The notes under the pieces are model-generated. The model ran no database searches and was not told the origin of the DNA. It saw only the letters and a program-made list of their open reading frames with translations. The position numbers and the translations under genes were made by a program. 32,000 bases of DNA from an uncultured Actinomycetota bacterium. Lineage in GTDB: Bacteria > Actinomycetota > Actinomycetes > Propionibacteriales > Nocardioidaceae. The stretch spans positions 549,898 through 581,897 of the forward strand of contig CAVPLS010000005.1 of NCBI GenBank assembly GCA_963706355.1, read 5' to 3'. Positions 3,507-27,181 of the stretch are shown here, piece by piece. Every line of letters starts with the position of its first letter. Position 1 is the stretch's first letter.

Positions 3507-5888
3507 GTGAGCGTGCAGGGCGGCCGCGGCAACCTGCCGCGGTCAACGACCACTCTCGTCGGGCGCGCGCAAGCCCTGCCGGAGGTCGTCGCCCTGGTCC
3601 GCTCCCGACCGCTGGTGACCCTGAGCGGGGTGGGAGGCGTCGGGAAGACGCGGCTCGCCCTCGCTGTCGGTGCCGAGCTCGCGGAGGAGTTCACGGACGG
3701 CGTGTGGCTGGTCGAGCTGGCGCCCGTAGCCGACGGCGACGCGGTCCCCGACGCGATCGCCACCGCCCTGGGTGTCACCCCGCAAGGCGGTGCTCGCGTC
3801 ATCGACGCCGTGGCCGAGGCCCTGGCCGGACGTCGCGTGCTGGTGGTGATCGACAACTGCGAGCACGTGCTCCCTGCGGCCGCGGAGGCCATCACCGAGA
3901 TCCTGGCCCGTTCCGAGGTCCCTCACGTCCTCGCGACGTCGCGAGAGCACCTGCGCGCGCCGGGCGAGGCCCTCCTCACCGTGTCCCCACTGGCCGTCGC
4001 CGGCGTCACCTCCGACGCGGTGACACTCTTCGCCGAGCGGGCCCAAGCGGTACGGCCCGGGTTCGGGATCTTCGACGAGCAGACGGCGGATGCAGTGATC
4101 CGGATCTGCGAGACGCTGGACGGGCTGCCGCTCGGCATCGAGCTGGCCGCCGCGCGGATGGCAGCCATGAGCGCGGTCGAGGTGTGCGACCGGCTCGATC
4201 AACGGCTCCGGCTGCTGACCGGGCCCGAGCTGGGGCCAGATCGTCAGGCGACGTTGCGGGACGCGGTGGCCTGGTCCTACGACCTCTTGGACGACGACGA
4301 GCGCGCGACCTTGCGCACGGCGTCCGTGTTCGCGGGCGGCTTCGACCTGCCCGCCCTGTACGACGTCAGCGAGGCGACCGACGACCTCGACGTGCTGCGG
4401 GACCTGGACTCGTTGGTGCGCAAGTCCCTCGTCATCGCGCACCACGACTCCGCGCGGACCCGGTACAGCCTCTTCGAGACCATCCGGGCGTTCACCGACG
4501 AGCAGCTCGAAGGCGACGACCGCGAGACCGCCCGCGATCGGCACGCGGCGTACTACGCGGAGGAGGCGGTCCGCCGGTGGGAGCGCTGGAACGGCCACGA
4601 GTGGCGGGACCAGGTCGACTGGGTGCAGCGGGAACTGGCGAACCTGCGGTCGGCGTACCGGTGGAGCCTCGACCGCGGTCACGTCGAGACCGCCACGGAC
4701 GTCGCGGCCCACGCCGCGCTGATGGGGTTCTCCGTCGAGCTCTTCGAGACCATCGGGTGGGCCGAGACCGTGCTCCCGGTCGCGGACACGGCCGATACCC
4801 GGCGGCTCCCGCGCCTGTACGCCGCGGCCGGGTACGCCTGCTTCGTGGGCCGGGCCGAGGTGGCGAGTGCGAACGCGCACCGCGCCACCGAGCTGGAGAG
4901 CCGGGACGGCTACGAGTCCTGCGAGCCGGGCTACGCGACCTTCATCGAGGCTCTCGGTCAGGTCTACAGCGGGAATCTGGCCCGGTACGTCGAGCTGACC
5001 CGCGAGGTCGCGGCGATGCCGGGCCCGGGACAGGCGTACGGGATCGCCGCGTACGTCGACGGGCTGCAGTCGGCCGGCCGGGTCGAGGAAGCGCTGCAGC
5101 TCACGGAGTCAGCAGTGACGGCGGCGCGCGACCTGGGCAATCCCTACTGGCTCGCGTACACCCTGTGGATCGTGGGTCTGGCGTACTCGAAGGCGGACCC
5201 GCAACGTGCCCTGACCGTCTGGGACGAGGGCACCGCCGTCGTCGCCGAGCACGGTGTGCGGTTCTTCGAAGGCTTCATGTCACGCGACGCTGCACTCCTG
5301 CACACGTCTCACGGGCAGGTGGAGAGTGCCCTCGCACTCTTCGACACCTCGATCGAGGCGTTCCTGCGCTCGGGTGCCGTCGCACAACTGGTCATCACCT
5401 TGGCCAGCCTTCCGGCCCTGCTCGAACGGCTCGACCAGCCCGGCGCCGCGCGCATCCTGTTGGCCGCGGTCGCCAACCATCCGGCAAGCTTTCACCACGT
5501 CCCGACGCTCGCCGAGCTGAGCACGCGGCTCGATGCCAGGCTCGGCCGCGAGGCCGCGACGAGGTACGCCGCCACAGGTGGAGCCTTCGACCTCCCTGAT
5601 GCCGCGGCCTACGCCCTGCACCGGATCGACGTGGCTCGCAAGGCTCTCGCCACGGCCTCCGGCGATGGACAGGGGGGACTCACTGCGCGGGAGTCACAAG
5701 TGCTCCGGCTGATCGCGGACGGGGCCACGACCCGCGAGGTGTCCGAGCAGCTGTTCATCTCGGCGAAGACCGCCGGCAACCACATACAGCACATCTACAC
5801 GAAGCTCGACGTGACCAACCGCGCAGAGGCCACCCGGTGGGCCATCGACCATGACGTCCTCGGTCCTCCCGACGCCGACGAAGGCTGA
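3507..5888 (+). CDS. LuxR-family transcriptional regulator with N-terminal STAND/AAA ATPase and TPR-like middle region
   Basis: 793 aa. The Walker A motif is LSGVGGVGKTRLA. A long helical repeat region follows. The C-terminal HTH is LTARESQVLRLIADGATTREVSEQLFISAKTAGNHIQHIYTKL. Confidence 0.9.
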   Translation: MSVQGGRGNLPRSTTTLVGRAQALPEVVALVRSRPLVTLSGVGGVGKTRLALAVGAELAEEFTDGVWLVELAPVADGDAVPDAIATALGVTPQGGARVIDAVAEALAGRRVLVVIDNCEHVLPAAAEAITEILARSEVPHVLATSREHLRAPGEALLTVSPLAVAGVTSDAVTLFAERAQAVRPGFGIFDEQTADAVIRICETLDGLPLGIELAAARMAAMSAVEVCDRLDQRLRLLTGPELGPDRQATLRDAVAWSYDLLDDDERATLRTASVFAGGFDLPALYDVSEATDDLDVLRDLDSLVRKSLVIAHHDSARTRYSLFETIRAFTDEQLEGDDRETARDRHAAYYAEEAVRRWERWNGHEWRDQVDWVQRELANLRSAYRWSLDRGHVETATDVAAHAALMGFSVELFETIGWAETVLPVADTADTRRLPRLYAAAGYACFVGRAEVASANAHRATELESRDGYESCEPGYATFIEALGQVYSGNLARYVELTREVAAMPGPGQAYGIAAYVDGLQSAGRVEEALQLTESAVTAARDLGNPYWLAYTLWIVGLAYSKADPQRALTVWDEGTAVVAEHGVRFFEGFMSRDAALLHTSHGQVESALALFDTSIEAFLRSGAVAQLVITLASLPALLERLDQPGAARILLAAVANHPASFHHVPTLAELSTRLDARLGREAATRYAATGGAFDLPDAAAYALHRIDVARKALATASGDGQGGLTARESQVLRLIADGATTREVSEQLFISAKTAGNHIQHIYTKLDVTNRAEATRWAIDHDVLGPPDADEG

Positions 5889-5940
5889 CCCCCCAGCGAC
5901 AGCGAACGTCAGGAGGCGAGCGGGGAGATGGGGACCCGAA

Positions 5941-5958
5941 ATGAGGAGATCTCCTCAT
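5941..5958. promoter_or_regulatory. 18-bp perfect palindrome ATGAGGAGATCTCCTCAT
   Basis: Read directly from the sequence. It lies 53 nt after the LuxR stop codon and about 100 nt upstream of the small ORF at 6059. It could be a dimeric-regulator operator or a 7-bp-stem hairpin, and no U-tract follows. Confidence 0.5.
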
Positions 5959-6058
5959 GTGCCGGACCCGGCTCACGGCGCAGGATTCCGATCAAGCCGG
6001 CCTCGAGGGCTGGGACGGACCCGGGGATCCAATCCCTGCTACGCAAGGAGATAGAGCG

Positions 6059-6331
6059 ATGATCCTGGCAACGACAACTGTGAAGGAACTGGACCACTTC
6101 CTGGACATCTTCGGCACCAAGGGCGCCGAAAAGCGCATCACCCACGGCTGCAAGGGCTCGGTCGTCTACCGCGACCCGGTCGAGGAGAACCGCGTCTGGG
6201 CGGTGTTCGACTGGGACGAGGAGGGCTGGACCGCCTTCGCCACCGACCCCGAGACACCCGGCATCATGCAGGAGGCCGGCCACCTGGGCCGCCCCTCCCT
6301 GGGCCAGTTCCTGGGCACCTTCCCGGGCTAG
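6059..6331 (+). CDS. Small hypothetical protein (about 90 aa, possibly an ABM/Dabb-like alpha+beta barrel)
   Basis: An internal ATG at 6059 is preceded by AAGGAG about 9 nt upstream. The sequence MILATTTVKELDHFLDIFGTKGAEKR..VWAVFDWDEEGW resembles small cyclase/ABM-like proteins. The longer ORF from 5957 has an implausible N-terminus. Confidence 0.55.
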   Translation: MILATTTVKELDHFLDIFGTKGAEKRITHGCKGSVVYRDPVEENRVWAVFDWDEEGWTAFATDPETPGIMQEAGHLGRPSLGQFLGTFPG

Positions 6332-6420
6332 GGCTCAGGAGCCCGACGAAGGATGGCGGCGGGGACGGAGAACCATCTCCGGTCCCGTCGCCGCGATGTG
6401 CTGGGAACCCCAGCAGTGGG

Positions 6421-7926
6421 TCAGCTCGGGCTGGACCTCGTGACGAAGGCGGCGATGTCCTTGCTCTGCTTGACCCGCGACGGCTCGTGGACGTACATCA
6501 TGTGCCCGGCCTCGTAGTAGTGGTGCTCGATGTTCGCGCGCAGCTCGTCGGTCAGGTTGAGGTGCGCGATCACGTCCTCGGCCGCGAAGTGCGGCGTCGC
6601 ACCGTCGTAGTAGCCGTAGGCCACGTGCACCTTGAGGTGCGGGTTGGCCCGCATCGCCCGCTCCAGCTTGGGCGTCACGTCGATCGGCCGGCCCTCGAAG
6701 TCCTTGAACGACCACGGGTTCACCCGCCGCGAGATCTGCTCGTAGGGCAGGTCGTTCTCGTAGCCCAGCTCGTCGCGCACGTAGTGGTTGAACGCCGCCG
6801 CGTAGGGTCCCGAGATCGCGTCGTGCGAGGGGTCGGCGTCCATCTCCTCCGCGATGGCCGACGCCATCGGGCCGCTGAAGCGCGCGTCGAGCCGGCCCGT
6901 CGTACGCCGTTCGTCGCGCAGCAGCTCGCCGAAGAACCGCCAGTGCTCGATGCGCAGGTTCGCGCGGTCGACGTAGTCCTCGGACAGACCGGTCAGGGAG
7001 GCGAGCTTCTTCACGGCCGCCGCGCGCTCCTTGGCGGTCAGCCGGTTGCCGCGCGAGAGCACCCACGGGTAGTCGCGGGCGGCGTACTCCTCGGCGTCCG
7101 CGACCACCGCCTTCAGCGACCGCCTGCCCAGCCGCCCGTGGTAGTGCGCCACCGCTGCGTACGTCGGGAGGTAGAGCGCGTAGGCCCGGTCGTTCTTGGT
7201 CTGGTTCTCGAAGTCGATGGACGACAGGTCGAGGACGCTGGAGATGAGGATCAGCCCGTTGATGTACATGCCGTACCTGGTCTGCAGGTGCTCGGCCAGC
7301 GCGGCGCCGCGCAGCGTGCCGTAGGACTCCCCGGCCACGAACTTCGGCGACATCCAGCGCTTGTGGCGCGACGTCCAGATCCGGATCAGCTCGGCGACGG
7401 AGTCGATGTCGCCCTGGTAGCCGTGGAACGGCTCGGCCTTGGTGCCCTCGACCACGCGGGAGTAGCCGGTCGACACCGGGTCGATGAACACCAGGTCGCT
7501 GACGGCCAGCAGGGACTCGGGGTTGTCGGCCAGCTCGTACGGCGGCGGGAGCAGCGCGCCCACGTCGCCCATCAGCACCCGTCGCGGCCCGAACAGGCCG
7601 AGGTGCAGCCACACGCTGGAGCTGCCGGGGCCGCCGTTGAACGCGAACGTCACGGGCCGGTTGGGGGAGCCGCCCTCGACGACGTACGACGTCACCGACA
7701 TCTCGGCCTTGGCCTTGAAGCCGGTGAACTTGCCGTCCTCGTAGACCTCGTCGCGCAGCACCACGCGACCGGTCGTCGCGGTGTAGTCGAGGGTCTTGCG
7801 ACCGACCCGCAGGTGATGCTTGGTGGCCACCACGTCGTCGGTCGGCTCGGCGGGCTTGGTGTCCACCTTGGGGGTGTCGGTCGATGTCTTCTCGGGAGCA
7901 GTCTTCTCGTCAGCCACGGACCCCAC
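6421..7926 (-). CDS. Peptidase S10 (serine carboxypeptidase family)
   Basis: 501 aa with a GTG start. It carries FNGGPGSSSVWLHLGLFGP and the catalytic-serine context AGESYG. The length is typical of bacterial S10 peptidases. Confidence 0.88.
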   Translation of the reverse strand: MGSVADEKTAPEKTSTDTPKVDTKPAEPTDDVVATKHHLRVGRKTLDYTATTGRVVLRDEVYEDGKFTGFKAKAEMSVTSYVVEGGSPNRPVTFAFNGGPGSSSVWLHLGLFGPRRVLMGDVGALLPPPYELADNPESLLAVSDLVFIDPVSTGYSRVVEGTKAEPFHGYQGDIDSVAELIRIWTSRHKRWMSPKFVAGESYGTLRGAALAEHLQTRYGMYINGLILISSVLDLSSIDFENQTKNDRAYALYLPTYAAVAHYHGRLGRRSLKAVVADAEEYAARDYPWVLSRGNRLTAKERAAAVKKLASLTGLSEDYVDRANLRIEHWRFFGELLRDERRTTGRLDARFSGPMASAIAEEMDADPSHDAISGPYAAAFNHYVRDELGYENDLPYEQISRRVNPWSFKDFEGRPIDVTPKLERAMRANPHLKVHVAYGYYDGATPHFAAEDVIAHLNLTDELRANIEHHYYEAGHMMYVHEPSRVKQSKDIAAFVTRSSPS

Positions 7927-7993
7927 CTTAGGGTCTACCGCTGTCGGCGTGGTGAGGACACAATCGGAGGTCCACCACGGAGGAGGCCCTCAG

Positions 7994-8416
7994 ATGACCA
8001 GCAAGCTCAACCCCTACCTCGGGTTCCGGGACAACGCCAAGGACGCGATGGAGTTCTACCACTCCGTGTTCGGCGGTGAGCTGAACGTCAGCACGTTCGG
8101 CGAGCTCCAGGCCAGCGAGGACCCCGCCGAGGCCGACAAGATCATGCACGCGCAGCTCGAGACCACCAGCGGCTACACGCTGATGGGCGCGGACACCCCG
8201 AACAGCATGGAGTTCGCCCCCAGCAGCAACCACTCGGTGTCGCTGAGCGGCGCCAGCGAGGACGGGGACGAGCTGAGCGGCTACTTCGACAAGCTGTCCG
8301 ACGGCGGCACCGTCGCGATGCCGCTCGAGCAGGCCCCCTGGGGCGACAAGTTCGGCATGGTCATCGACAAGTTCGGCGTGCAGTGGCTGGTGAACATCGC
8401 CGGGCCCACGTCCTGA
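7994..8416 (+). CDS. VOC-family protein (PhnB-like glyoxalase fold)
   Basis: An ATG at 7994 follows GGAGGAGG. MTSKLNPYLGFRDNAKDAMEFYHSVFGG..., PWGDKFGMVIDKFGVQWLVN are typical of PhnB-like proteins. The upstream part of ORF 7820 is antisense to the peptidase gene. Confidence 0.85.
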   Translation: MTSKLNPYLGFRDNAKDAMEFYHSVFGGELNVSTFGELQASEDPAEADKIMHAQLETTSGYTLMGADTPNSMEFAPSSNHSVSLSGASEDGDELSGYFDKLSDGGTVAMPLEQAPWGDKFGMVIDKFGVQWLVNIAGPTS

Positions 8417-8423
8417 CCGCGTC

Positions 8424-9620
8424 CTAGTCGATCACCCGGAGCCGGACCGTCTCCGGCACGGCCTGGAGGCTGGCCATCACCTCGGGCGAGAGGCCCGATC
8501 CGGTGTCCGTCACGACGTACCCGGTGTGACCGCGGGTGGCGAGCACCTGCCCGCCGATGTTCACGTCGTGCTCGGCGAGAACCTGGTTGACGTGCGCGAG
8601 CACGCCCGGGGTGTTCTGGTGGATGTGCGCGATCCGCTGCGCGTGTGCGGAGCGGCCGGGGGTGAGGGTCGGGAGGTTCACCGACAGCGACGTGCTGCCG
8701 TAGAGCACGTAGTCGCGGAGCTTGCCGCCGACGAAGCGACCGATGTCCTCCTGCGCCTCCTCGGTCGACCCGCCGACGTGCGGGGTGAGGATCACGTTCG
8801 GCAGCCCGCGCAAAGGTGACTCGAACGCGTCGCCGCGGCCCTTCGGCTCGGTGGGGAACACGTCGACCGCCGCACCCGCGACATGGCCGGAGACCACGCT
8901 GTCGCGCAGCGCCTCGTAGTCCACGACGAAGCCGCGCGACAGGTTCAGGAACAGCGACCGCGGTCGCATCCGGGCGAGCTGCTCGGCCCCGAAGATGCCG
9001 GCGTTCCCGGCCCGGCCGTCGACGTGCAGGGTGACCGTCTCGACGGTGTCGAGCAGCTCCTCGAGCGACGAGCACCGCTTGGCGTTGCCGAGGGCCAGCT
9101 TGTCGTCGGTGTCGTAGAAGTAGACCTGCATGCCGAGCATCTCCGCGACCACGGAGAGCTGCGAGCCGATGTTGCCGTAGCCCACGATGCCGAGGGTGCG
9201 ACCGCGGATCTCGTGGCTGCCGGTCGCCGACTTGTCCCAGACGCCCGCGTGCAGCGCCTTGTCGCGCTCGGTGAGCCGGCGGGCCATCGCGATGATGTTG
9301 GCCACCGCCAGCTCCACGACCGAGCGGGTGTTGGAGAAGGGTGCGTTGAAGGCCGCGATGCCGTGCTGGGTCGCGGCGTCCAGCGCGATCTGGTTGGTGC
9401 CGATGCAGAAGGCACCGATCGCGACCAGCTCCGGCCGGGCCTCGAGCACCCGCGGCGTGACCTCGGTCTTGGAGCGGATGCCGAGCAGGTCGACGCCGTC
9501 CAGCGCCGCGATCAGCTCGTCCTCGTCGAGCGCCGACGACCGGGCGTCGACCTCGATCCCGGCCTCGCCGAGGATCGTCGACGCCAACGGGTGCAGGTTC
9601 TCCAGGAGCAGTGCTTTCAC
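8424..9620 (-). CDS. serA: D-3-phosphoglycerate dehydrogenase (E. coli-type, with C-terminal ACT domain)
   Basis: Near-collinear with E. coli SerA: AIGAFCIGTNQIALDAA, FNAPFSNTRSVVEL, LGIVGYGNIGSQL, TPHVGGSTEEAQE, HIHQNTPGVLA. The GTG at 9620 (VKALLLENLH) gives 398 aa. The GTG at 9755 would add an Arg-rich, non-conserved extension. Confidence 0.9.
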   Translation of the reverse strand: MKALLLENLHPLASTILGEAGIEVDARSSALDEDELIAALDGVDLLGIRSKTEVTPRVLEARPELVAIGAFCIGTNQIALDAATQHGIAAFNAPFSNTRSVVELAVANIIAMARRLTERDKALHAGVWDKSATGSHEIRGRTLGIVGYGNIGSQLSVVAEMLGMQVYFYDTDDKLALGNAKRCSSLEELLDTVETVTLHVDGRAGNAGIFGAEQLARMRPRSLFLNLSRGFVVDYEALRDSVVSGHVAGAAVDVFPTEPKGRGDAFESPLRGLPNVILTPHVGGSTEEAQEDIGRFVGGKLRDYVLYGSTSLSVNLPTLTPGRSAHAQRIAHIHQNTPGVLAHVNQVLAEHDVNIGGQVLATRGHTGYVVTDTGSGLSPEVMASLQAVPETVRLRVID

Positions 9621-9796
9621 GCCCCCACTGTCCCAGGAGACCTCGACGGCTCCGGTGCCGACCCTGCTCGCGTGGACACGTCGGCTCTTGACCTGGGCAA
9701 CATTCGCTATGTCGGGGGACCGCCTCGTGGTGCTGTACTGGGCAGGTCGCCCCACGCAGCAGTCCGTCTACGCCTGCGCCCGGGGAGGTGGTCCAC

Positions 9797-10231
9797 ATGG
9801 ACATGACGGCAGACGACCCCACCTGGGAGCGGCTGGAGGACCAGCTCGCCTGGTACGACGGCAAGAGCCGCGACAACCAGCGCCGTTACAAGTGGCTCAA
9901 GCTGCTCGAGCTCGCGGTCGCAGCGGCACTCCCCGTCGTGGCTGCGCTGGAGAGCCCGGTGTGGCTGACCGGCGGGCTGGCCGCGGTGATCGTCGTGCTC
10001 GAAGGCGCCCAGCACCTGTTCCAGTTCCAGGAGCACTGGATCACCTACCGCTCCACCGCCGAGGCGCTGAAGCACGAGCGCTACCTGTACCTCGCGCAGG
10101 CGGGTCCGTACGCCGGCGAGGCCCGGCACCGCCAGCTGGCGGAGCGGCTCGAGGGGCTGATCTCCCAGGAGCACGCGAAGTGGACGGCCAGCCACCGGGA
10201 CACGCACGGTCAAGGGGAGGACGAGACATGA
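9797..10231 (+). CDS. DUF4231 / SLATT-superfamily 2-TM protein
   Basis: The ATG at 9797 lies 8 nt after GGGGAGG (9782-9788); the alternative GTG is at 9788. WYDGKSRDNQRRYKWLKLLE is followed by two hydrophobic helices (LAVAAALPVVAAL and WLTGGLAAVIVVLEGAQHLF). Then comes the family-typical W-I-T-Y-R-S-T-A-E-A-L-K-H-E-R-Y-L-Y-L motif. The stop overlaps the next start (ATGA). Confidence 0.82.
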   Translation: MDMTADDPTWERLEDQLAWYDGKSRDNQRRYKWLKLLELAVAAALPVVAALESPVWLTGGLAAVIVVLEGAQHLFQFQEHWITYRSTAEALKHERYLYLAQAGPYAGEARHRQLAERLEGLISQEHAKWTASHRDTHGQGEDET

Positions 10232-11157
10232 GCGGCATCTTCCTGAGCTACCGACGCGACGACGCATCGGGCTGGGCCGGGCGTCTCTACGAGCATCTCG
10301 TGCGTGACTGGGGAACCGATCACGTGTTCATGGACATCGACACCATCGCGCCGGGTGAGGACTTCCGGAAGGCGATCGCGCGGACGATGGACACCTGCGA
10401 CGTCGTGATGATCGTGATCGGGCCCAACTGGATCGACGCCCGCGACCAGGCGGGGCGGCGCCGCCTCGAGCAGGAGAGCGACACGCACCGGGCGGAGGTC
10501 GTCGCCGCGCTGTCGGCCGACGTCCGGGTCGTCCCCGTCCTCGTGGGCGGTGCGACCATGCCGGCGATGAACCAGCTGCCGGGTCCCATGCAGGAGCTGG
10601 TCTACCGCAACGCCGCGATCGTGGAGGACCGCAGGTTCGCCAGTGACGTCGATGCCCTGCAACGCACGCTGAGAGGACTGACAGCGCCGACCGACCACAG
10701 CGAGCCGCAAGAGGTCTCCACGGAGCCGGGGGCGAGGATGGCGGAGCCGGTGCGCGCCGTCCCGCGGAGGCCGTCCCCCGCCGGTCCGTCGGAGCAGACC
10801 GGCGCGTGGGTGCTCGTCCTGGTCGGCGCGGCCATGGTCCTTCTCTGGGGTGTCCTGCTGCCGCGGGGCTGGCACAACGAGTTCGGGGCCATCAGGGTCA
10901 TCGGCGGTGTGCTGCTGCTGGCCGGCGTGGCTGCGGGACTGTGGATGCGACGGTGGACGTGGGTGCTCGCCGCAGGAGCTGTCGGGTTGACCGGGTTCGT
11001 GCTCTGGATGCTCCAGCTGCTCAGCACGCACGGCGACGAGGTCGGTGAGCTCTTCGGGTTCGGGTACGACGGGCTCGGCAACACCGCGACGTTCGTCGGC
11101 GCTGTCCTGGTGCTGGTGGGTGGCGCGATCGGCGCACGGAACGAACGCGCCGGCTGA
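10228..11157 (+). CDS. TIR-domain protein with C-terminal 4-TM module
   Basis: 309 aa. The ATG follows AAGGGGAGGA. The TIR_2-type N-terminus reads GIFLSYRRDDASGWAGRLYEHL, DVVMIVIGPNW, THRAEVVAAL and VVPVLVGGATMP. A Pro/Glu-rich linker covers aa ~150-190. Four hydrophobic helices follow (WVLVLVGAAMVLLWGVLL, IRVIGGVLLLAGVAAGLWM, WTWVLAAGAVGLTGFVLWMLQLL, ATFVGAVLVLVGGAIG). Confidence 0.88.
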   Translation: MSGIFLSYRRDDASGWAGRLYEHLVRDWGTDHVFMDIDTIAPGEDFRKAIARTMDTCDVVMIVIGPNWIDARDQAGRRRLEQESDTHRAEVVAALSADVRVVPVLVGGATMPAMNQLPGPMQELVYRNAAIVEDRRFASDVDALQRTLRGLTAPTDHSEPQEVSTEPGARMAEPVRAVPRRPSPAGPSEQTGAWVLVLVGAAMVLLWGVLLPRGWHNEFGAIRVIGGVLLLAGVAAGLWMRRWTWVLAAGAVGLTGFVLWMLQLLSTHGDEVGELFGFGYDGLGNTATFVGAVLVLVGGAIGARNERAG

Positions 11158-11189
11158 CCGACCCGAAGGCCGCGCTGGAACCGCGTTAG

Positions 11190-11690
11190 TGCGCCGACCG
11201 GCGACGGCTGCTCGACCGGGCCCTGCAGACCGTGCAGCGGCGCGAGGGCAAGAAGCCCTCCGCCGTGGTGAACGAGCTGGCCAAGAAGCTGCGGCCGGAG
11301 CTCTACCAGCGCCTCGAGACGGCCGGCATCCTGCGCGCCGAGCGGAACAGGCTCCTGGGCGTCTTCCCGACCACGGTGTGGCCGACGGCCTCGGCCGACC
11401 ACGAGACCGCCGTACGACGCGCGATCACGTCGGCGCTGGTGCAGGGGCTGACGCCGGAGCCGAGGGCCGGCGCACTCGTCGCGCTGCTGCACGCGCTCCG
11501 GGTCACCCACAAGGTCGTCGTGCCCAAGGAGCACGGGCTCCGCCGCCGCGAGGTCGACCGTCGCGCCAAGGAGATCGCCGAGGGCAGCTGGGGATCCCAG
11601 GCGGTGCGCGACGCGGTCGACGCGATGATGGTCGCGGTGACGGCGGCGGTCACCGCCAGCACGGCGGCGGCGACCGCGTCGAGCGGCTGA
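11190..11690 (+). pseudogene. GPP34/GOLPH3-family protein, 5-prime-truncated (remnant ORF 11232-11690)
   Basis: LLDRALQTVQRREGKKPSAVVNELAKKLRPELYQRLETAGILRAE..LGVFPTT..DHETAVRRAI..PEPRAGALVALLHAL is collinear with the central and C-terminal parts of bacterial GPP34 proteins. The roughly 65-75-aa N-terminal region is absent. Homology continues upstream of the GTG at 11232 and stops at an in-frame TAG (11187-11189), 30 nt after the TIR stop. Confidence 0.72.
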
Positions 11691-27105: not shown

Positions 27106-27181
27106 TGGAGCGGATGACGAGACTCGAACTCGCGACATCGACCTTGGGAAGGTCGCGCTCTACCAACTGAGCTACATCCGC
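27106..27181 (-). tRNA. tRNA-Gly (anticodon CCC), CCA encoded
   Basis: The reverse complement is GCGGATGTAGCTCAGTTGGTAGAGCGCGACCTTCCCAAGGTCGATGTCGCGAGTTCGAGTCTCGTCATCCGCTCCA. It folds as a cloverleaf: 7-bp acceptor stem, D arm GCTC/GAGC, anticodon stem CGACC/GGTCG with loop TTCCCAA, and T arm GCGAG/CTCGT. Confidence 0.93.

Follow-up and report, generated by a model that had tools for sequence, protein, structure and literature searches.

In a 32,000-nucleotide stretch of DNA from an uncultured Nocardioidaceae bacterium (assembly GCA_963706355.1, contig CAVPLS010000005.1, positions 549,898 to 581,897; ~70% GC, hereafter the window), two overlapping open reading frames (ORFs) on the + strand form a cassette in which a gene for a SLATT-domain membrane protein (ORF A) is followed by a gene for a TIR-domain protein with four transmembrane (TM) helices (ORF B, a TIR-4TM protein). 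We consider, with the balance tipped somewhat in favour of this view, that the cassette is a two-gene abortive-infection module of the type VII Thoeris kind with a membrane-tethered TIR. Type VII Thoeris consists of a TIR protein, ThsB, and a SLATT-domain effector, ThsH (Yirmiya et al., bioRxiv 10.64898/2025.12.03.692087, 3 Dec 2025). This view is supported by the domain identities of both proteins, the homology of ORF A to ThsH, the alignment of a glutamate of ORF B with a catalytic one, the operon structure, purifying selection, and the fact that the two genes are present or missing together in related loci. What triggers the module, which signal it uses, that it forms pores and that it acts against phage are inferred. 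A preliminary description of this DNA had proposed such an abortive-infection pair, with the TIR protein as signal generator or NADase and the SLATT protein as membrane effector, and after our analysis this is the best-supported reading.

The SLATT and TIR genes and their products

ORF A passed the curated cutoffs of Pfam DUF4231 (PF14015; 1.5e-28, 99.7 bits, cutoff 24.7), Pfam SLATT_1 (PF18181; 2e-10, 41.2 bits, cutoff 26.3) and NCBIfam SLATT_1 (2.1e-37, 128 bits, cutoff 41). Its W84-x-x-Y-R-x-T-A-E-x-L-K-x-E97 motif, the DUF4231 signature, is invariant in 26 homologs, and a hydrophobicity scan revealed two TM segments. The AlphaFold2 (AF2) model (predicted local distance difference test score, pLDDT, of 71) places helices 11–53 and 58–105 in a hairpin, with a third helix at 112–141. 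By these thresholds ORF A is a member of the SLATT superfamily and of DUF4231, with a 2-TM hairpin followed by a conserved, predicted cytoplasmic helix. When the model was compared with PDB structures by Foldseek, nothing significant was found (the best E value, 0.32, reflected coiled-coil noise), and a scan with the SLATT alignment found no relatives on viral contigs.

To compare ORF A with ThsH, we seeded a search with the published TIR-domain sequence of the validated ThsB of B. licheniformis SCCB37. It recovered a protein (P0269) that is 98% identical to this ThsB. The gene upstream of it, at locus L176, encodes a 150-aa SLATT_1/DUF4231 protein (PF18181/PF14015) and overlaps the TIR gene by the 4 nt ATGA (GGAGAAAAAAAATGA). 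ORF A is 37% identical to this 150-aa protein over its full length (E 5e-32), and 34% identical to the DUF4231 protein of an S. chromogenes plasmid pair (hhalign probability 99.5). Judged by sequence, the homology of ORF A to the ThsH-type DUF4231 effector is clear. Moreover, the SLATT-then-TIR order and the ATGA overlap are common to the window and L176, which speaks for a type VII Thoeris-like module.

ORF B matched TIR_2 (1.3e-13, 51.9 bits, cutoff 28). Its AF2 model, built on 46 homologs (mean pLDDT 86.9), shows a TIR fold at residues 1–152, a disordered linker at 156–185, the length of which varies among homologs, and four TM helices (187–210, 220–240, 243–267/276 and 282–308). The best Foldseek matches of the TIR domain were SARM1 TIR structures (TM-score 0.83–0.88, target-normalised; E 7e-7), and SARM1 was likewise its best sequence-profile match (E 6.5e-6, 23–26% identity). 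In the profile alignment, Glu90 of ORF B faces the E of the SARM1 motif DWVHKEIV, which we take to be the catalytic E642, and all 46 aligned family members keep this residue. The ORF B TIR domain would therefore carry a catalytic-type glutamate for NAD+ processing, with Glu90 as the putative residue. Unlike ORF B, SARM1 is a eukaryotic ARM-SAM-TIR octamer that is not membrane-embedded.

No Pfam family covers the 4-TM module. When 1.84 billion representative proteins were searched exhaustively with HMMER, it turned up in just 24 clusters (50% identity), most of which are TIR-4TM proteins of ~300–330 aa. One cluster has a CHAT domain (6.9e-27) instead of the TIR domain, and another a weak caspase-like domain with HEAT repeats; the WHxE and DGxxN motifs of the module are retained in these CHAT- and caspase-like fusions (P0392, P0390). 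These two motifs would face outward, since the TIR domain is taken as cytoplasmic and an RRW loop lies at 241–243. The CHAT and caspase-like heads suggest that the module represents a family of membrane sensors, not yet annotated, that serves bacterial suicide effectors.

The coordinates of the cassette are collected in Table 1. ORF A could also start at GTG 9788, giving 147 aa, but ATG 9797 is the more likely start: it is served by the GGAGG at 9784–9788, and the 144-aa form agrees with the gene calls of relatives. The 398-aa serA-like gene on the other side of the intergenic region starts near 9620, as inferred from the related locus L002. ORF A and ORF B have third-position GC contents (GC3) of 0.93 and 0.90, compared with 0.84–0.97 for neighbouring genes, and no GC dip was seen across the cassette. 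A consensus scan of positions 9400–11500 found neither a sigma-70 promoter consensus nor a terminator. No direct or inverted repeats that could mark a mobile-element boundary were found flanking the cassette, nor was a tRNA or Rfam feature found near it; the sole RNA gene detected in the window, tRNA-Gly(CCC) at 27106–27181 (-), is not close to it.

All that the preliminary description had read from the sequence about the genes themselves was borne out: the DUF4231/SLATT call on a 144–147-aa ORF, its two TM helices and signature, the TIR_2 plus 4-TM composition of ORF B, and the host-like codon usage. The ATGA and the strong Shine-Dalgarno sequence inside the first gene could be read in the sequence, and the interpretation as a translationally coupled operon was correct. 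The genes within the span of 9621–11231 given for the cassette were also confirmed; ORF B stops 74 nt before the stated end at 11231.

Table 1. Features of the SLATT/TIR-4TM cassette (window coordinates)
Feature	Position	Strand	Basis or remark
Divergent intergenic region, presumed promoter region	9621–9796		Between serA-like gene (- strand) and ORF A
Shine-Dalgarno GGAGG for ORF A	9784–9788	+	8 nt before ATG 9797; sequence read
ORF A, DUF4231/SLATT_1 2-TM protein, 144 aa, ThsH-like effector	9797–10231	+	Pfam and NCBIfam matches
Shine-Dalgarno GGAGG for ORF B	10216–10220	+	Inside ORF A, within AAGGGGAGGA; 7 nt before ATG
ATGA start/stop overlap (translational coupling)	10228–10231	+	Sequence read; also kept in L173 and L176
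ORF B, TIR-4TM protein, 309 aa	10228–11157	+	TIR_2 match, alignment, AF2 model
TIR domain, aa 1–152, SARM1-like fold	10228–10683	+	TIR_2, Foldseek
GAG codon of Glu90, putative catalytic glutamate	10495–10497	+	Profile alignment to SARM1
Disordered Pro/Ala-rich linker, aa 153–186	10684–10785	+	pLDDT <50 at residues 156–182
Conserved 4-TM module, aa 187–308, without Pfam family	10786–11151	+	AF2 helices
W215-H216-N-E218 motif, loop after TM1, predicted extracytoplasmic	10870–10881	+	Invariant in ORF B family alignment
D281-G282-x-x-N285 motif, TM3–TM4 loop, predicted extracytoplasmic	11068–11082	+	Invariant in ORF B family alignment

Local history and distribution of the cassette genes

The cassette occupies a slot between serA and a GPP34 gene, where it is also present in two related loci, L002 (95% nucleotide identity) and L173 (82% nucleotide identity, ATGA retained). 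The L173 proteins are 89% (SLATT) and 71% (TIR-4TM) identical to those of the window, values that are distorted by assembly frameshifts, and L173 was left out of the rate comparisons. Between the window and L002, the ratio of non-synonymous to synonymous substitution rates (dN/dS) is 0.067 (SLATT gene), 0.086 (TIR domain), 0.64 (linker) and 0.28 (TM module), with flanking genes at 0.05–0.17. Given these low values, both cassette genes are under purifying selection; on our interpretation of the ratios, the sensor-like TM part evolves fastest. In two further loci with flanks of 83–88% nucleotide identity, L171 and L172, homology stops at window position 9637. One has an AMP-binding enzyme in the slot and the other two unknown 300-aa proteins. 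Both cassette genes are jointly absent from these two loci. The slot next to serA is thus variable among Nocardioidaceae, and the cassette enters or leaves it as a whole.

It should be noted that the TIR-4TM gene of L002 has a +1 frameshift within TM3 (L002 positions 10786–10790). Past this point the sequence remains conserved in the shifted frame, so the frameshift probably stems from an error in the long-read assembly and does not mark a pseudogene. The GPP34 gene of the window (11158–11690) is ~180 bp, or ~65 N-terminal codons, shorter than in L002 and L173, with the deletion starting right after the TIR stop; it is truncated or a pseudogene, because the remaining ORF matches only positions 75–201 of Pfam GPP34. 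Further upstream, the window encodes a rifampin ADP-ribosyltransferase, Arr-ms (2401–2811, -; 1.2e-48), and a 793-aa AAA+LuxR regulator (3507–5888, +). Both genes are missing from the 95%-identical L002, which indicates a local indel of ~2.7 kb.

To survey the wider distribution of the two genes, we used hidden Markov models (HMMs) built for the TIR domain, the 4-TM module and the SLATT domain. A SLATT-centred scan covered 80 loci of species-representative genomes, mostly Actinomycetota, and a TIR-centred scan covered 80 metagenome loci. For loci at 63–66% GC, where GC3-based gene calling is unreliable, stop-to-stop ORFs were combined with the HMMs.

In the SLATT-centred scan, a TIR_2-subfamily gene was adjacent to the SLATT gene in 28 of the 80 loci (on the same strand, 16 upstream and 6 downstream; in divergent or convergent orientation, 6). 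This count is a lower bound, as the loci hold other TIR types that the TIR HMM missed, e.g., a 990-aa protein with a C-terminal TIR_2. Of the 15 species-representative genomes with a SLATT at least 74% identical to ORF A, 12 had an adjacent TIR_2 gene, with varying order and orientation. At least one TM segment was predicted in all 21 full-length SLATT-adjacent TIR partners. Several of these TIR_2 partners (L023, L027, L032) add PD40 or Vgb-lyase/SGL-like beta-propellers after the TM segments, which resembles a receptor architecture. Overall, the survey shows that actinobacterial DUF4231 proteins of the ORF A clade are recurrently paired with membrane-anchored TIR_2 proteins, and this pairing extends the type VII picture past the tested Bacillota and Pseudomonadota examples. 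The SLATT protein itself is widespread, with homologs of at least 77% identity in more than 120 clusters (90% identity) spread over actinobacterial families.

The TIR-centred scan gave one weak SLATT match among its 80 metagenome loci, and the TIR-4TM gene stood solo in 14 of 14 metagenome loci.

Some of the surveyed loci deserve separate mention. In L174/L175 (450–10237), the neighbours of a SLATT gene with 85% identity to ORF A include genes for a phage-type integrase, an AAA_25 protein and a SAP-domain protein. A convergent CAP12-PCTIR_TIR gene that the TIR HMM missed is also there, and upstream lies a 438-aa gene without annotation; the variant may be carried by a mobile element. In L003/L004, a solo TIR-4TM gene (10001–10966) is divergent to a three-gene operon (5561–9739, -) for a Peptidase_M15_4/PG_binding protein, an unknown protein and a TPR-S/Trypsin_2/LSDAT_prok (SLOG-like) protein, and this operon might be an alternative nucleotide-sensing effector partner of TIR-4TM. 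The search with type VII ThsB also matched an Acinetobacter johnsonii plasmid (L169, 2357–5201), on which a TIR-TIR-TPR-TIR gene row stands beside HigB/HigA. Finally, Pseudonocardiaceae hold orphan SLATT genes that adjoin purK/purE, GtrA, a histidine kinase or a trehalose phosphatase. Five of these, from Pseudonocardiaceae metagenome-assembled genomes (L026, L034, L035, L043 and L044, around 6000–8500), encode DUF4231/SLATT proteins 60–65% identical to ORF A in conserved purK/purE synteny, and no TIR gene was found within 8 kb of them.

Proposed mechanism and alternative explanations

If the two proteins act together, ORF B would be embedded in the membrane, its TIR domain on the cytoplasmic side, and its 4-TM bundle would present the WHxE and DGxxN motifs on the outer face. 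A membrane-level trigger, presumably phage adsorption or injection or an envelope perturbation, would activate the TIR domain, probably through clustering. The active TIR domain would then cleave NAD+ via Glu90 to give an ADP-ribose-derived nucleotide, most likely, by analogy, canonical cyclic ADP-ribose (cADPR). This nucleotide would bind the cytoplasmic face of ORF A, at the conserved YRSTAExLKHERY helix, and ORF A would oligomerise and breach the membrane, leading to cell death or arrest. The validated ThsBs are soluble; functional coupling of the present pair would locate the trigger at the membrane and would make the 4-TM module, with its two invariant polar motifs, a concrete sensor candidate.

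Several observations weigh against a type VII Thoeris-like module. ORF B shares only 27% identity over 75 aa with type VII ThsB and belongs to a different TIR clade, and PADLOC (2023) gave no match for ORF A. The search did return weak partial ThsB/SAVED-TIR matches for ORF B (ThsB1, 33.9 bits), and its outcome is uninformative because the database predates Thoeris types V–XI. The cassette does not lie in a defence island: its neighbours are housekeeping genes (serA, glyoxalase, peptidase S10, GPP34, Trx-NHL, DEAD helicase and acyl-CoA dehydrogenase), with no integrase or known defence gene nearby. A PADLOC scan of nine other window proteins likewise gave no defence-system match, and its sub-threshold matches were weak and partial (CARF3/TRIP13, 17–27 bits, on the AAA+LuxR regulator at 3507–5885). 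Furthermore, ~60% of the more distant SLATT homologs (50–66% identity) are orphans beside housekeeping genes. A SLATT gene was near none of the 14 metagenome TIR-4TM loci and in neither of two genome lineages; the SLATT plus TIR-4TM pairing was seen in three related loci only. The window TIR is 70–77% identical to solo TIR-4TM or TIR-RDD proteins and 36–50% identical to the TIRs of the closest SLATT relatives. Lastly, the 4-TM module also bears CHAT or caspase-like domains.

Since the window TIR is closer to solo TIR-4TM proteins than to SLATT-linked TIRs, the pair looks like a lineage-specific re-partnering, in which a SLATT of a TIR-associated clade would have joined a TIR-4TM of a normally solo clade. 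The main alternative, which we regard as unlikely yet deserving of weight, is that two independent suicide or defence modules are co-transcribed by chance. TIR-4TM would then be self-contained, the 4-TM module sensing and the TIR domain acting as a SARM1-like NAD+-depleting effector, and the SLATT protein would be a separate effector or the leftover of an older pair whose TIR was replaced. The solo state of TIR-4TM in all 14 metagenome loci and both genome lineages favours this explanation, as do the many orphan SLATT homologs, the incongruent SLATT and TIR phylogenies and a TIR fold nearest to the NAD-consuming SARM1. So does the exchange of TIR for CHAT or caspase-like domains on the 4-TM module, a pattern typical of effector positions; because these domains take the same place, the TIR domain would stand in an "executioner" slot and not in a pure signalling slot. 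However, the ATGA overlap and the internal Shine-Dalgarno sequence are kept in L173 at 82% nucleotide identity, SLATT genes of the clade nearest to ORF A stand next to a TIR gene in almost all cases, and the validated homologous pair works as signal generator and effector. Moreover, SARM1-type cleavage of NAD itself yields cADPR/ADPR (ADP-ribose), so NAD depletion and signalling are not mutually exclusive. If the two genes did act independently, the cassette would be an ordinary member of known families.

A further idea, which we put forward as speculative and give little credence, is that TIR-4TM is an outside-in TIR receptor. Its 4-TM module, with the two motifs predicted to face outward, would sense an extracytoplasmic or intramembrane event, e.g., the adsorption or injection of a phage or damage to the envelope, and switch on a cytoplasmic "death" domain, as a chassis reused with TIR, CHAT and caspase-like heads and wired in this Nocardioidaceae lineage to a ThsH-like SLATT pore via the TIR-made nucleotide. 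If true, this would be a Thoeris that is set off at the membrane and recalls Toll-like receptors in its logic.

A non-defence role, in an actinobacterial membrane-stress or programmed-cell-death/dormancy circuit where TIR-4TM responds to an endogenous envelope cue or an extracellular one and SLATT alters membrane permeability, possibly by direct membrane contact and not a diffusible nucleotide, is improbable: it would suit the unusual conservation of SLATT across actinobacterial families, the orphan SLATTs in conserved housekeeping contexts such as purK/purE in Pseudonocardiaceae, the housekeeping surroundings and host-like codon usage of the cassette and the receptor-like TIRs with TM segments and beta-propellers, but it is opposed by the presence or absence of the cassette at one slot among close Nocardioidaceae, the close SLATT homolog beside an integrase/AAA_25 element with a CAP12-type TIR, the experimentally anti-phage action of homologous pairs and the reported enrichment of DUF4231 in defence islands (PMC10799925).

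Comparison with known TIR and SLATT systems

The type VII Thoeris-like reading can be set against the described systems that join TIR and SLATT proteins. Two other assignments were rejected for the cassette. The type III Thoeris protein ThcB4 (NCBIfam NF058526) scored 43.7 bits against a cutoff of 220, with a match to only the N-terminal ~67 aa of the TIR domain. A CBASS or retron assignment was discarded as no CD-NTase (SMODS) or reverse transcriptase was found within ~10 kb on either side in the annotated syntenic L002 and the scanned window proteins. The same annotation and proteins revealed no SIR2, SLOG, Macro or cyclase gene nearby, in agreement with the preliminary description.

Its claim that the pair is undescribed could not be upheld, as TIR and SLATT pairs were predicted in 2015, reported from phages in 2022, and validated as Shaseng in 2024 and type VII Thoeris in December 2025. 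According to Kaur et al. 2020 (PMC7159879), the 2015 prediction (Burroughs et al.), which the preliminary description also cites, held SLATT proteins to be nucleotide-gated pores, and Iyer, Burroughs and Aravind 2022 (PMC9503650) describe conserved TIR-SLATT neighbourhoods in Firmicute phages. These predictions share with the cassette a 2-TM SLATT beside a nucleotide-generating or nucleotide-processing TIR; they differ in being computational and in concerning soluble TIR partners or phage-borne pairs, with no mention of a 4-TM fusion in the text consulted.

Shaseng (bioRxiv 10.1101/2024.12.27.630466) comprises a SLATT TM protein and two TIR proteins, and TIR inactivation abolishes its immunity. 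It has in common with the cassette a SLATT membrane effector associated with TIR. Compared by description only, it differs by its two TIR genes and its CRISPR crlRNA supervision, and the text consulted mentions no membrane-anchored TIR.

The closest system is type VII Thoeris, of which three representatives have been validated and whose reported phyla include Actinomycetota (10.64898/2025.12.03.692087). Its TIRs produce canonical cADPR upon infection, and external cADPR is toxic to system-bearing cells. AlphaFold3 predicts ThsH oligomers with basic pockets between protomers, where diffusible cADPR is proposed to bind (same source). Two claims of the preliminary description are therefore not supported, namely that the cassette differs from characterised Thoeris, since type VII is exactly a TIR plus a SLATT effector without a separate ligand-binding domain, and that coupling must occur within the membrane or by contact, which is not required if a diffusible nucleotide binds between SLATT protomers. 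By sequence features, the cassette shares with type VII the two-gene operon, the ~145–150-aa DUF4231/SLATT_1 2-TM gene directly upstream of the TIR gene, the 4-nt ATGA overlap, the effector without a separate ligand-binding domain and the putative catalytic glutamate of the TIR.

The difference lies in the TIR partner. The type VII ThsBs validated so far are 130–135-aa soluble PF08937 TIR-only proteins, whereas ORF B is a TIR_2 domain with a linker and four TM helices, and so departs from the stand-alone soluble ThsB-type TIR of all validated examples. This trait may not define type VII, because Yirmiya et al. (10.64898/2025.12.03.692087) define Thoeris types by their effector and list TIRs from several clusters. 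A full-text search, within the literature text it reached, found no description of a 4-TM anchor on the TIR partner. The pairing of TIR with SLATT, including a SLATT without a separate ligand-binding domain, is of a described and validated kind; set beside the accounts of these systems, the new element of the cassette looks to be the membrane anchor on the TIR partner only.

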